A stretch of DNA of 4,705 bases. Source: a virus (lineage: Duplodnaviria; Heunggongvirae; Uroviricota; Caudoviricetes). The stretch lies in the IMG/VR virus record IMGVR_UViG_2698536677_000018, positions 1-4,705 of that record; one strand, 5' to 3'. The notes under the pieces were generated by a model. The model did not search any database and had not been told where the DNA came from. It was given only the letters and a program-made list of their open reading frames with translations. Position 1 is the first letter of the stretch, and every line of letters begins with the position of its first letter. The translations under genes were made by a program, and so were the position numbers. This document shows, piece by piece, positions 1 through 4,705 of the stretch.

Positions 1-46
1 TGGTATTGCTGTGGCCGGTGATAAAAAGAAACAGCCTGCATAATGC

Positions 47-73
47 TTGATTTTTTTGTTTGCTGTTTATTAA
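47..73 (+). promoter_or_regulatory. Candidate sigma70 promoter (-35 TTGATT 47-52, -10 TATTAA 68-73), possible late promoter analogous to lambda pR'
   Basis: Hexamers read directly from sequence. Spacer is only 15 nt and the -10 lacks the conserved final T, so the match is weak. Position just after an upstream stop codon and ~200 nt upstream of a strong terminator fits lambdoid late-leader layout. Confidence 0.2.
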
Positions 74-252
74 AAACACTTCTGCATGGTGAATCCCCCT
101 GTGCGGTGGGGCAATCAGCAAGAAGGAATATGGGGTAATCGCGGATTCAGGTGCTGATACTGAATTCACCGGGAGGCACCCGGCACCATGCTTTGCCACA
201 AAAGTGTTATTTCTGTTTTTCTCAAACTATCATCGTTATCCCTTTATTTTCG

Positions 253-278
253 GCTGCGCATGGCGCGGCTTTTTTTTT
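253..278 (+). terminator. Rho-independent terminator (7-bp GC-rich stem GCTGCGC/GCGCGGC, 3-nt loop, 9-T tract)
   Basis: Stem 253-259 pairs with 263-269 (one G-U pair), followed by T run 270-278. Seen directly in sequence. Confidence 0.6.
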
Positions 279-351
279 ACGACCAGCCACTGGCAGATGG
301 TCATCCTGTGATTTGATTCCGCTTCCGGCTTTTTAACTCTGTTCCTCTACA

Positions 352-357
352 CGGGAG
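352..357 (+). promoter_or_regulatory. Shine-Dalgarno sequence (GGGAGA) for the esterase gene
   Basis: GGGAGA lies 7 nt upstream of the ATG at 365. Confidence 0.6.
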
Positions 358-364
358 AAATTCG

Positions 365-2656
365 ATGTCGATTAAACATTATGATGTTGTCAGGGCGGCG
401 TCGCCGTCAGACCTTGCGGAAAAGCTGACACACAAACTGAAAGAGGGCTGGCAGCCATACGGCGGACCGGTTGCCATTACGCCGTACACACTGATGCAGG
501 CGGTGGCTATTGAAGGAGAGCCACAGGTCGGCCCTTCATCTGAGCCGGATTGGTACTACGTCATCGTACTGGCCGGGCAGTCCAATGCCATGGCTTACGG
601 TGAAGGGCTTCCGCTGCCGGATTCATACGATGCTCCGGATCCGCGCATTAAACAGCTGGCGCGCCGCAGTACAGTTACGCCGGGTGGGGCTGCCTGCAGA
701 TATAACGATATTATTCCGGCTGACCACTGTCTGCATGATGTGCAGGATATGAGTACGCTGAATCATCCGAGGGCTGACCTGAGCAAAGGGCAGTACGGCT
801 GTGTCGGCCAGGGTTTACATATTGCCAAAAAACTGCTCCCGTATATCCCGAATAACGCGGGGATCCTGCTGGTACCATGCTGTCGTGGTGGTTCGGCATT
901 TACCCAGGGCGCGGAGGGGACATTCAGCGAGTCCACGGGGGCCACAGCAGAAGGTGATGTGGTGGTCAGTGGTGCAACTGAGCCGGAGTGGTACTACGTC
1001 ATCGTACTGGCCGGGCAGTCCAATGCCATGGCTTACGGTGAAGGGCTTCCGCTGCCGGATTCATACGATGCTCCGGATCCGCGCATTAAACAGCTGGCGC
1101 GCCGCAGTACAGTGACGCCGGGCGGGGCTGCCTGCAGATATAACGATATTATTCCGGCCGACCACTGCCTGCATGATGTGCAGGATATGAGTACGCTGAA
1201 TCATCCGAAGGCAGACCTGAGCAAAGGGCAGTACGGCTGTGTCGGCCAGGGCTTACATATTGCCAAAAAACTGCTCCCGTATATCCCGAATAACGCGGGG
1301 ATCCTGCTGGTACCATGCTGTCGTGGTGGTTCGGCATTCACCCAGGGCGCGGAGGGGACATTCAGTGCGGACACGGGGGCCAGCCAGGATTCGGCACGCT
1401 GGGGTGTGGGTAAACCGTTATATCAGGACCTGATTGCGCGCACTAAAGCTGCATTACAGAAGAACCCGAAAAATGTGTTGCTGGCGGTGTGCTGGATGCA
1501 GGGAGAGTTTGACATGAGCGCCGCCACCCACGCACAGCAACCTGCGCTGTTTACAGCCATGCTGACACAGTTTCGTGCTGACCTCTCCGTGTTTAACGCG
1601 CAGTGCCATGGTGGCAGTGCTGCAGATGTGCCGTGGATTTGTGGTGACACGACGTATTACTGGAAAAATACATACGCTACCCAGTACGACACCGTGTACG
1701 GCGGGTATAAAAACAGGGAGAGTGAGGGCGTTTATTTTGTGCCCTTCATGACAGACGGTAACGGCGTCAATACCGCCACTAACGCGCCGGCAGAAGATCC
1801 GGATATTCCGGCATCAGGATATTACGGTGCGGCATCGAGAACGAATGGAAACCAGGTATCATCAAACCGCCCGACACATTTCAGTTCATGGGCGCGCAGG
1901 AGCATTATTCCGGATCGTCTGGCAACCGCTATTCTGAACGCAGCCGGGCGCACCTCAGCCTTCATCAGTGGTAAGGCACCGGAAATCAAACCCTCGCCCG
2001 GCGGCAACACGCCATCGGGTCCGTCTGCAGATACGTCCGTTCGCACAATCTCCCTGCTGCCGGCAGCCGGAGAGGCTGCTGCGCAGGGCTGGAGCATTAA
2101 GGATGGCGGAATTCAGTTGTCAGATGGTGTATTTAAGATCACCAAGCAGAGCAATAAAACCTGGTCCCTGACGCATCCGGTGGATGACGCAATTACCCTG
2201 CTGACACAGGGCGGCAGACTGACCTGTAAGTTCCGCCTGTCAGGCGCACTGACCAACAATCAGTTCGGGCTGGGGATTTATCTGTATACGGATGCTCCCG
2301 TTCCTGATGGTGTGGCGATGACGGGTACCGGTAATCCGTTCCTGATGTCGTACTTCACTCAGACCACTGACGGCAGAGTGAATCTGATGCATCACAGGAA
2401 AGCCGGAAACACGAAGCTGGGGGAGTTCGGCGATTACGGTAACGACTGGCAGACGCTGGAGCTGGTGTTCACCGCCGGCAGTGCCACGGTTACTCCGAAA
2501 CTGAATGGAGTGGCTGGCCCGGCATTCCAGGTTATAAAAGACAGTCTGACACTGGGGCTGAATGCGCTGACGCTGACGGATGTTACAAAAAATGCAGCGT
2601 ATGGCGTTGAGATAGAAAGTCTGGTGCTGGAGATAAATGCACCGGCATCATCATAA
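365..2656 (+). CDS. nanS-p: Prophage NanS-p-type sialate (9-O-acetyl-Neu5Ac) O-acetylesterase, SGNH/SASA-family, with N-terminal DUF1737-like region and an internal duplicated segment
   Basis: 763-aa uninterrupted ORF with good SD. N-terminus [21 protein letters not shown]... and the [11 protein letters not shown] motif are recalled as characteristic of the esterase ORF found upstream of the lysis genes in Stx-type prophages. The GQSN block occurs twice (around aa 71 and aa 217). Confidence 0.8.
537..944 (+). repeat. Direct repeat copy 1 inside the esterase CDS (encodes about aa 58-194, including the GQSN motif)
   Basis: Aligns base-for-base with 975-1382 at a 438-bp in-frame offset. The 391-bp core 537-927 vs 975-1365 shows 9 mismatches (~98% identity). 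Confidence 0.9.
975..1382 (+). repeat. Direct repeat copy 2 inside the esterase CDS (encodes about aa 204-340, including the second GQSN motif)
   Basis: Same alignment as copy 1. The copies are separated by a ~30-bp unique linker encoding ...[17 protein letters not shown]... Confidence 0.9.
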
Positions 2657-2741
2657 AAAGTGAGCCAGTCAAATGGAAGGTATCGTTAAACTCACCGGTA
2701 GTGTCAGTGGGTCGTCTGAGACGCCTGCATGAGTTATCAGA

Positions 2742-2771
2742 GCCATCAGTAGTTAACTGGTGGCTTTTTTA
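2742..2771 (+). terminator. Rho-independent terminator between the esterase gene and the holin gene
   Basis: Stem GCCATCAG (2742-2749) pairs with CTGGTGGC (2757-2764) with one G-U pair, loop TAGTTAA, then TTTTTT at 2765-2770. Confidence 0.6.
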
Positions 2772-2805
2772 TTGTTGTCAGCTTCCGGATAACGGGAGAC
2801 GGGGT

Positions 2806-3021
2806 ATGTACCAGATGGAAAAAATCACAACGGGTGTGTCATACACCACGTCAGCGGTGGGGACGGGATACTGGTTACTGCAGCTGCTGGACAAAGTCTC
2901 TCCGTCCCAGTGGGTGGCGATAGGTGTGCTGGGGAGTCTGCTGTTTGGCCTGCTGACGTATCTGACTAACCTGTATTTCAAAATCAGAGAGGACCGGCGT
3001 AAGGCGGCGCGGGGAGAGTAA
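2806..3021 (+). CDS. S: Class II holin (S21-type pinholin), 71 aa, with dual-start motif M1-Y-Q-M4
   Basis: Translation [71 protein letters not shown] closely matches phage 21 S as recalled (...[14 protein letters not shown]...[22 protein letters not shown]). GGAGA SD upstream. The six-frame ORF starting at 2701 would run through the terminator hairpin, so the ATG at 2806 is preferred. Confidence 0.85.
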
Positions 3022-3025
3022 AGTG

Positions 3026-3370
3026 ATGAATAAAAAATACGAACTGGTTGTTAAAGGGATAAATAATTACCCGGATAAGATTACTGTTACTGTGGCACTG
3101 GAAATTGGTGGGTATCCGTCACTGTTGTTGCCATATGTGGCGATTAGTCTTGACCGTACTGAAGGTGCCACGCTGGAGTTTTACGAAGCTGAGGCGAAAA
3201 AGCAGGCGAAGCAGTTTTTCATGGATGTTGCTGCCGGGTTATGTGAAGGGGATGGTCCGTTGCCGGAAAAGCGGCCCATCATTTTAGAGGCGCAGGATGT
3301 GTTGATAACCTACAGAGGAAAACTACCGGGAATAATTACTGGTTCTCTGAAGACTCCACCGCTGGCCTGA
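3026..3370 (+). CDS. Conserved hypothetical lysis-cassette protein, 114 aa, soluble; possibly DUF1327/YdfR-like
   Basis: ORF with strong SD (GGGGAGAG 3011-3018) that starts 5 nt after the holin stop. Its position between holin and endolysin matches the slot of ydfR in the E. coli Qin prophage as recalled. No transmembrane segment or recognisable catalytic motif. The family assignment is from memory, not a search. Confidence 0.55.
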   Translation: MNKKYELVVKGINNYPDKITVTVALEIGGYPSLLLPYVAISLDRTEGATLEFYEAEAKKQAKQFFMDVAAGLCEGDGPLPEKRPIILEAQDVLITYRGKLPGIITGSLKTPPLA

Positions 3371-3420
3371 AGACTTAACATATCCAGGGATTTGAAATCG
3401 ATAAACCCTGATAAATATCC

Positions 3421-3957
3421 ATGAACGCAAAAATCAGATACGGCCTGTCGGCTGCCGTTCTGGCGCTGATTGGTGCAGGGGCGTCTGCGCCTGAAATCCT
3501 CGACCAGTTTCTTGACGAAAAAGAAGGTAACCACACCACGGCATACCGTGATGGTGCGGGGATCTGGACCATCTGCCGCGGTACCACCCGAGTGGATGGT
3601 AAACCTGTCGTCCCGGGCATGAAGTTGTCGAAGGAAAAATGCGACCAGGTTAACGCCATTGAACGTGATAAGGCGCTGGAGTGGGGGGAGCGCAATATTA
3701 AAGTACCGCTGACCGAACCCCAGAAGGCGGGTATCGCGTCATTTTGTCCTTATAACATTGGCCCCGGTAAGTGTTTCCCGTCTACGTTTTACAGACGGAT
3801 TAATGCAGGTGATCTAAAAGGTGCCTGCGAAGCGTTCGCTGGTGGATTAAGGACGGTGGCAGAGACTGCCGTATCCGCTCAAATAATTGCTACGGTCAGG
3901 TATCCCGGCGAGACCAGGAAAGTGCACTGGCGTGCTGGGGAATTGACAGGCAAGTAG
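3421..3957 (+). CDS. R: SAR endolysin (T4-lysozyme-family, phage 21 R-like), C-terminal ~40 codons apparently frameshifted
   Basis: N-terminal Gly/Ala-rich signal-anchor-release segment YGLSAAVLALIGAGASAP. Catalytic triad spacing E-x8-D-x5-T in KEGNHTTAYRDGAGIWT matches phage 21 R (LEGVSYIPYKDIVGVWT). After ...GDLKGACEA the called frame gives FAGGLRTVAE..., unlike the family, while the overlapping frame encodes RWWIKDGGR...SRRDQESALACWG, which resembles phage 21 R (RRWTYAGGK...TRREIEREVCLWG). Confidence 0.75.
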   Translation: MNAKIRYGLSAAVLALIGAGASAPEILDQFLDEKEGNHTTAYRDGAGIWTICRGTTRVDGKPVVPGMKLSKEKCDQVNAIERDKALEWGERNIKVPLTEPQKAGIASFCPYNIGPGKCFPSTFYRRINAGDLKGACEAFAGGLRTVAETAVSAQIIATVRYPGETRKVHWRAGELTGK

Positions 3958-4041
3958 AATATTTTGCTGAAAATGACGTTGGTCAACGCGGGTGGGTAAC
4001 ACGAAATCCTGCGAACTGGCAAAAGCTAAGTGAATAAAAGT

Positions 4042-4080
4042 AAAACCTCGTTTGTTGGCCGCAAACGGGGTTTTGTGTTT
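4042..4080. terminator. Strong bidirectional rho-independent terminator hairpin (13-bp stem, 7-nt loop, T-rich tracts on both sides)
   Basis: AAAACCTCGTTTG (4042-4054) pairs with CAAACGGGGTTTT (4062-4074) with one G-U pair, followed by TTTTGTGTTT. The A-run on the 5' side gives a U-tract on the reverse strand. Confidence 0.65.
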
Positions 4081-4143
4081 CTGACCTTGAGTAAGGCAAA
4101 GGAGAACATAGGAAAGTATAAACGAATTCTGTTGAGATTGACT

Positions 4144-4290
4144 ATGAAAGACGGCCTTGAACTGAAAGCGCCTGTAACTGATGACGTCAGCAGAGCGCTG
4201 GCTTTTGCTATTAAGTGGGTGGCGGTCGGTATTGCTGTGTCTCCGATGCTGTATGGGCTGGCAAAACTGGTCATTGCGTTGAAATCGTGA
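4144..4290 (+). CDS. Hypothetical small membrane protein (48 aa, one predicted TM segment)
   Basis: First ATG in the 4030-4290 open frame lying downstream of the terminator hairpin. C-terminal hydrophobic stretch WVAVGIAVSPMLYGLAKLVIAL. No convincing SD within 5-10 nt of the ATG, so support is weak. Confidence 0.25.
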   Translation: MKDGLELKAPVTDDVSRALAFAIKWVAVGIAVSPMLYGLAKLVIALKS

Positions 4291-4302
4291 AGAGGATTAA
4301 GC

Positions 4303-4413
4303 ATGTCAGACAAGCTCATAACGCTGGCGAAGATCCTCTGTGTAATCGTCGGCATTTCATTTTCACTAATATGCTGGTTGCTATTTGCTTTTCCACTGCC
4401 TGGCGCGTCTTAA
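4303..4413 (+). CDS. Hypothetical small hydrophobic peptide (36 aa, single TM-like segment)
   Basis: ATG at 4303 preceded by GAGGA (4292-4296) at 6-nt spacing. Translation MSDKLITLAKILCVIVGISFSLICWLLFAFPLPGAS. Too short to appear in the supplied ORF track. Confidence 0.35.
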   Translation: MSDKLITLAKILCVIVGISFSLICWLLFAFPLPGAS

Positions 4414-4443
4414 CTTTGTCAGGGCTGGTGGGGTGAGGGGGAT

Positions 4444-4705
4444 ATGAACCGTGTTCTGTGTGTGGTGATTATTGTCCTGCTGGTAGCCTGTGGTGCGCTT
4501 GGTCTGGGGCTGAATCATTACCGCGATAACGCCATTACCTACAAAGCGCAACGCGATAAAAAAGCCAGTGAGCTAAAGCTGGCGAACGTGACAATTACTG
4601 ATATGCAGGTACGCCAGCGTGATGTCGCTGCACTTGATGCCAGATACTCGAGGGAATTAGCCGATGCGAGAGCTGAAAATGAAACTCTGCGTGCTGATGT
4701 TGCCG
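4444..4705 (+). CDS. Rz: Rz inner-membrane spanin (i-spanin), lambda-type, 5' partial (runs off the window end)
   Basis: Translation [87 protein letters not shown] is near-identical to lambda Rz as recalled (...[64 protein letters not shown]). N-terminal TM segment then coiled-coil region. GAGGGG SD upstream. Confidence 0.9.
4665..4705 (+). CDS. Rz1: Rz1 outer-membrane lipoprotein spanin (o-spanin), embedded in the +1 frame of Rz, 5' partial
   Basis: ATG at 4665 in a different frame from Rz encodes [13 protein letters not shown]..., matching the lambda Rz1 start MLKLKMMLCVMMLP as recalled. Only 13 codons lie in the window; the true start could instead be the Met at 4680. Confidence 0.6.

Follow-up and report, generated by a model that had tools for sequence, protein, structure and literature searches.

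NanS-p proteins are encoded by lambdoid phages of STEC and EHEC strains (933W L0105/Z1466 family; phi24B gp84), in which the gene is located upstream of the holin gene in the late region and the presence of multiple alleles per genome is typical. The NanS-p of Stx2a phages is 645 aa long (PMC10462455), and catalytic roles have been assigned to the Ser of the GQSN block and to the His of the RxxH motif (PMC9063846, PMC10462455). For phi24B, a preprint proposes that gp84/NanS-p undergoes autoprocessing at SSP-containing linker motifs placed just after the capsid-binding DUF1737 (10.64898/2026.04.10.717836). The locus studied here shares with these systems the DUF1737, SASA, and DUF6645 jelly-roll domains and the position upstream of the holin gene. 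It differs from them in the size and content of the predicted product: a 763-aa form with two GQSN blocks is found only in this scaffold.

Two known types of event produce structures that resemble this one. Lambdoid phages are mosaics, and where illegitimate recombination has left a joint, parentage changes abruptly at a single nucleotide and homology is essentially lacking, as is the case here; however, real joints are continuous and inherited, whereas the joint described below contains a gap symbol and occurs in a single draft record only. The second type is technical. Scaffolders record overlapping contigs as negative gaps and can insert gaps between contigs that overlap (PMC5368935). The resulting artefact, in which overlapping contig ends are left unmerged, has several traits in common with our locus: a gap character at the join, homologous sides offset so as to mimic a tandem duplication, a multi-copy paralogous prophage gene, a single occurrence in databases, and a short scaffold. 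The difference is that the two ends here come from two paralogs (30/438 differences), so the scaffold is also chimeric. On the evidence given below, the apparent in-frame duplication is almost certainly an artefact, produced by joining the contigs of two paralogs end to end over a gap of one N.

The long reading frame and its internal repeat

The window, i.e. the whole 4,705-nt stretch of viral DNA that was analysed, contains a 763-aa ORF at positions 365–2656 of the plus strand. The ORF has matches above the cut-offs to PF08410, PF03629, and PF20350, with DUF1737 (aa 4–49) followed by SASA (SGNH type II) and DUF6645. From its domain architecture and position the gene is a NanS-p, i.e. a predicted prophage sialate O-acetylesterase. 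The real nanS-p alleles at this locus type are 616–617 aa long. In the 763-aa ORF, the GQSN nucleophile block is present twice (aa 71–74 and 217–220), and the WMQGE block (aa 377–381) and the catalytic-His block RPTH (aa 502–505) are present once each. Residues 205–525, with the full catalytic domain, align to residues 16–332 of E. coli NanS 3PT5 (E=8e-121), which corresponds to the second copy of the repeat described below plus the sequence downstream of it, and the C-terminal domain aligns to NanS-p 6YP6. If such a protein existed, the first copy would be an orphan N-terminal piece of the catalytic domain with a second GQSN block, without a WMQGE or catalytic-His block of its own. The AlphaFold2 model of the product has a mean pLDDT of 57, and the values fall below 50 over residues 28–205, the region of the first copy, because no homolog aligns there; the model is thus uninformative.

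The nanS-p gene is followed by a lysis cassette, and the same context was found in all the single-copy loci used for comparison (L001–L009). On the plus strand, the cassette comprises a class II holin of the P21 S type (2806–3021; PF04971, E=1e-32), a DUF1327/YdfR-family gene (3026–3370; PF07041), a phage lysozyme gene (3421–3957), and the 5' part of the Rz lysis gene (4444–4705; PF03245), cut by the end of the scaffold. The lysozyme gene carries a 1-nt deletion after position 3834 (GCG[A]TTCGC), which alters the C-terminus by replacing its last ~40 residues. Exactly the same lysozyme product is encoded by 12 contigs, which represent at least nine other assemblies as well; thus, the deletion genuinely marks a lineage and does not stem from an error of sequencing. 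The prophage that carries it is probably decaying.

The ORF contains a direct repeat with a start-to-start spacing of 438 nt, corresponding to 146 codons. The true repeat units span 507–944 and 945–1382, are placed exactly head to tail, and differ at 30 positions overall. The first ~33 nt of the units, belonging to the inter-domain linker after DUF1737, differ at 17 positions, and the last 17 nt at four. The base-by-base comparison of 540–927 with 978–1365 gave exactly nine mismatches (at 550, 676, 685, 721, 730, 771, 775, 814, and 901). Seven of these are synonymous changes at third positions, and two replace an amino acid: GAT/GAG (D/E; codon 548–550 vs 986–988) and AGG/AAG (R/K; codon 770–772 vs 1208–1210).

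An earlier note on this DNA had described seven synonymous and two conservative changes among nine mismatches, and this partition was confirmed. The note counted the nine over a 391-bp core, which is correct for 540–927 but not when the core is set as 537–927 (391 nt), where a tenth mismatch appears at 539/977 (S/T). Similarly, the R to K change is real, although it had been placed near 769–771 vs 1207–1209 instead of at the codon given above. The note had also argued from the mismatch between 945–974 and 1383–1412 that the flanks do not behave as a simple tandem duplication: the exclusion of a replication slip holds, but that pair of segments is uninformative, and the informative pair is 507–539 vs 945–977.

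Following its suggestion to compute dN/dS between the copies, we applied the Nei-Gojobori method to codons 542–928 and obtained eight synonymous and two non-synonymous differences, with dS of 0.092, dN of 0.0068, and omega of 0.075. Under random placement, the probability of seven or more synonymous differences out of nine is 0.001.

The source record and the junction at position 944

An exact look-up of the unusual lysozyme product led to the record CYFX01000100.1, a 4,705-nt scaffold of the draft assembly GCA_001285605.1. The window is this entire scaffold: the genes are called at the same coordinates, including the 763-aa gene at 365–2656, and 4704/4705 positions are identical. Record and window disagree only at position 944, where the former has N and the latter A. 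At the junction, the record reads …gggggccNcagcag…, or, with the gap marked, …GGGGGCC[N]CAGCAGAAGG…; the sequence on either side of the join is …ACGGGGGCC-x-CAGCAGAAGGTGATG…. Apparently, Ns are converted to A when such windows are prepared, a step that makes scaffold gaps invisible and gives rise to ORFs whose continuity is false. The exact look-up of the 763-aa product found nothing, since the recorded product has an X at residue 194. A literature search found no paper on the accession or on the assembly pipeline behind CYFX01000100.1.

The scaffold gap at 944 thus divides the record in two. Contig A (1–943, plus strand) contains the 3' end of a DUF3927 gene and, past an intergenic region, the 5'-terminal 579 nt of a nanS-p allele that has linker type A (see below) and the O157-type signature "FSESTGA". 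Contig B (945–4705, plus strand) contains a nanS-p allele with linker type B from ORF position 143 to the stop codon, followed by the holin, DUF1327, and lysozyme genes and the start of Rz. The first repeat unit is the end of contig A (507–943, ORF positions 143–579 of the linker-A paralog) and the second is the start of contig B (945–1382, ORF positions 143–580 of the linker-B paralog), both on the plus strand; the 763-aa ORF reads through the gap. The earlier note had named chimerism near 975 or 1383 as an observation that would overturn its reading. Chimerism was indeed found, but at 944 and at neither of those positions.

Both sides of the gap match ordinary single-copy loci in one piece. 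Window positions 1–944 match loci of B19374, CD45, O145:H28, and others at 99.7–99.8% identity (two mismatches in the best case), and positions 945–4705 match an ordinary prophage of O145:H28 RM12761 at 98.6%. Within the second part, positions 945–1420 are 99.8% identical to the single-copy allele of O26 RM8426 (best match, one mismatch), and the allele of strain 98E11 has three mismatches to the gene of contig B between ORF position 143 and the stop codon. Every alignment to the eleven loci that we fetched breaks exactly at 944: alleles with linker type A match 1–944 and resume at 975, and alleles with linker type B match from 944 on. No allele in the complete genomes matches either unit at 100%, so that the two paralogs from which this strain's units derive were not themselves observed.

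The junction did not recur in any of the collections searched. Among 5,426 complete E. coli genomes, no record covered at least 80% of the junction query, and the best whole-gene matches span 1,854 nt, not 2,292 nt; the picture was the same in 50,697 phage records, where the junction was not found. The exact junction 41-mer had no match in IMG/VR and the GTDB representatives, and the exact 26-mer none in the JGI metagenomes. A 19-mer was absent from IMG/VR and gave 16 chance matches (at most 25 nt, in unrelated organisms) in the GTDB representatives and JGI metagenomes. Furthermore, no homolog of ~763 aa was present in a set of 5.8 billion proteins.

Parentage of the two units and origin of the join

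Sequence similar to nanS-p occurs at a median of two and at up to 15 places per genome in the 5,426 complete E. coli genomes. The single-copy alleles (L001–L009) have one of two sharply different types of DUF1737-SASA linker, A and B, and in the window type A precedes the first copy and type B the second. Unit 1 (507–944) has two mismatches to the linker-A alleles L006, L008, and L009, which carry the "FSESTGA" signature, and 28–29 to the linker-B alleles L002, L003, and L007. Conversely, unit 2 (945–1382) has 28 mismatches to the former and 2–3 to the latter. Since 30 sites separate the two units and only about two separate each of them from a distinct single-copy allele, the copies are not each other's closest relatives. 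Of the 30 sites at which the units differ, 29 show both states in ordinary single-copy alleles, in matching haplotype blocks. In strain E2865, an allele with the signature of copy 1 and an allele with the linker of copy 2 occupy two separate prophages, located at 0.909 Mb and 2.508 Mb.

On this comparison of alleles, the mostly synonymous differences between the copies reflect variation that already stands among functional paralogs, not divergence within one gene. The pattern of selection that the earlier note had read in the copies is therefore genuine (omega as above), but it accumulated between paralogs and not inside one gene. Its proposal that the extra copy came from recombination with a paralogous allele is to be divided in the same way: the copies do come from different paralogs, each with its own best match as the note had suggested checking, but what lies between them at 944|945 is a scaffold gap of one N, and a biological joint is not supported.

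The sequence of events was most probably the following. Several lambdoid prophages reside in the E. coli genome, and each brings a nanS-p of its own; as these copies are ~93–99% identical, the assembly breaks inside nanS-p. One contig (1–943) ends at ORF position 579 of the linker-A paralog and another (945–4705) begins at position 143 of the linker-B paralog. A scaffolding or gap-closing step, presumably on read-pair evidence, then set the two contigs side by side; as the ends differ at 30 of ~438 positions they could not be merged, and a single N was left, which later became A. The frame is kept, 438 being a multiple of three, and this gives an uninterrupted 763-aa ORF with an apparent duplication of 146 codons. 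SSPACE and GapFiller leave a single N in such cases of overlap. In the sister assemblies that carry the lysozyme marker, the contigs end at or before the holin gene or inside the 3' end of nanS-p, which identifies nanS-p as a repeat-induced break point. We infer that GCA_001285605.1 was built from short reads, and that a joining program acting on read pairs caused the join. Mis-traversal of a De Bruijn graph was considered as the cause and set aside, as there is no shared k-mer at the join.

It is possible, although we hold this only tentatively, that the two contigs are true neighbours. The true gene would then be a single-copy hybrid, with 1–506 and 1383–4705 belonging to the same prophage and one of the contig ends wrongly extended during gap filling with reads from another paralog; the duplication would still be an artefact. 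Coherently with this, the scaffolder did link the two contigs, and the removal of either unit leaves a gene of the usual 1,854 nt that closely resembles known alleles, with 15 mismatches to L001 when unit 2 is deleted and 18 to L002 when unit 1 is deleted. On the other hand, read-pair links are unreliable in repeats, and the sequence does not separate a join within one prophage from a join between two.

A real chimeric partial duplication hidden behind the N is very improbable. It would require two lambdoid (pro)phage genomes to have undergone one illegitimate recombination at a microhomology of 1 nt, joining position 580 of the linker-A allele to position 143 of the linker-B allele and duplicating 146 codons in frame; the N would then be no more than an uncalled base. 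Two sides of different allelic parentage do meet at one sharp point, as in the joints for which lambdoid phages are known. The 438-nt offset is in frame and the A that replaced the N is the base that both parents carry beside the join, although these two features, to be expected of a real joint with 1-nt microhomology, are also likely by chance (about 1/3 and about 1/4, respectively). However, the only record with the junction is a 4.7-kb scaffold of a draft assembly with an N exactly there, the junction was found nowhere else in the genomes, phage records, IMG/VR, GTDB representatives, metagenomes, and protein set, and similar joins in another draft assembly (L010, described below) are clearly artefactual. 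Moreover, a direct repeat of 438 nt with ~93% identity between its copies would not be stable. If the duplication were real, it would be a freshly formed lambdoid mosaic joint, not yet resolved, that duplicates the N-terminal part of the SGNH domain.

A tandem duplication that arose inside a single allele, whether by slipped replication or by unequal exchange of sister chromatids, and was followed by divergence under purifying selection or by gene conversion, would account for the head-to-tail layout, the period that is a multiple of three, and the synonymous excess, but its probability is negligible given the N at 944, the 17 differences in the first 33 nt with both versions being common population alleles, and the matching haplotype blocks in which both states pre-exist. 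In particular, divergence after duplication was ruled out by the presence of both states at 29/30 sites in single-copy alleles, and duplication followed by gene conversion is unparsimonious, as the conversion tract would have no more than the 11 nt from 933 to 944 in which to end.

Overall, what would mark a genuine intragenic tandem duplication is lacking here: the junction is interrupted by an N, it does not recur, and the copies are not each other's closest relatives. What was found is what a scaffolding artefact leaves, i.e. an N at the join, two sides that are each collinear with single-copy loci, and a draft scaffold in a repeat-rich region. The 763-aa ORF is thus probably fictitious and its product not a real protein.

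Under the reading as a scaffold join, the duplication has no biological significance, and its value is that of a warning. When single-N joins in draft scaffolds are combined with a silent change of N to a base, unmerged ends of paralogs can mimic an in-frame duplication with synonymous divergence and a long ORF. In draft assemblies, any tandem repeat inside a multi-copy prophage gene is suspect, and Ns are worth keeping or flagging; the public record CYFX01000100.1 itself gives the spurious 763-aa gene call.

Other irregular nanS-p records

Several other records of this gene family show unusual structures, and internal duplications different from that of the window are present in several long homologs from draft assemblies. 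The draft locus L010 (BDHX01000150.1, GCA_003113535.1), which covers the same prophage region, has at least four tandem duplications, each of ~275–295 nt, at joins, plus a 7.8-kb skip. The join points are at 2415, 3330, 4755, 5409, and 6512; one of them adjoins an N and the others are clean. The NanS-p predicted from this locus (P0002, 709 aa) is spurious, and its N-terminus is chimeric. Unlike in the window, the duplicated copies in L010 are internally identical. The duplications at its joins show that duplication artefacts do occur in drafts of this multi-copy gene.

Two NanS-p proteins from databases contain in-frame internal duplications. In P0001 (707 aa, UniRef), a segment of ~100 aa, or 300 nt by projection onto the gene of the window, is present twice ("CWMQGEFD…NTATNAP"), and in P0059 (730 aa, nr) the segment "TTYFWKQ…SSWARR" is present twice. 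Their read-length-like sizes suggest that these are similar assembly artefacts. For the junction of the P0001 type, the search of complete genomes gave two-piece matches with normal layout in all 8 records listed (of 8 + 1,071).

Fusions were also observed in public assemblies. P0024 (912 aa) is a NanS-p fused to a C-terminus similar to phage head proteases, P0028 (752 aa), encoded in a 6.6-Mb contig, is a NanS-p fused to a tail-fibre C-terminus, and P0046 (682 aa) is a NanS-p fused to a fragment with molybdopterin-oxidoreductase Pfam domains (PF14710, PF00384) at its N-terminus. These three may be deletion joints or further assembly chimeras.

Finally, we made two minor observations on nanS-p alleles. 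Linker type A contains the motif "PSSEP", and type B is without SSP; considering the motifs proposed for phi24B, the two linker types might differ in autoprocessing. The paralog L005 of strain E2865 (NZ_AP018808.1, 909334–911198) carries a 14-nt insertion, GGCTTACGGTGAAG, which is a local tandem duplication that causes a frameshift, and the gene is annotated as a pseudogene in this finished genome.
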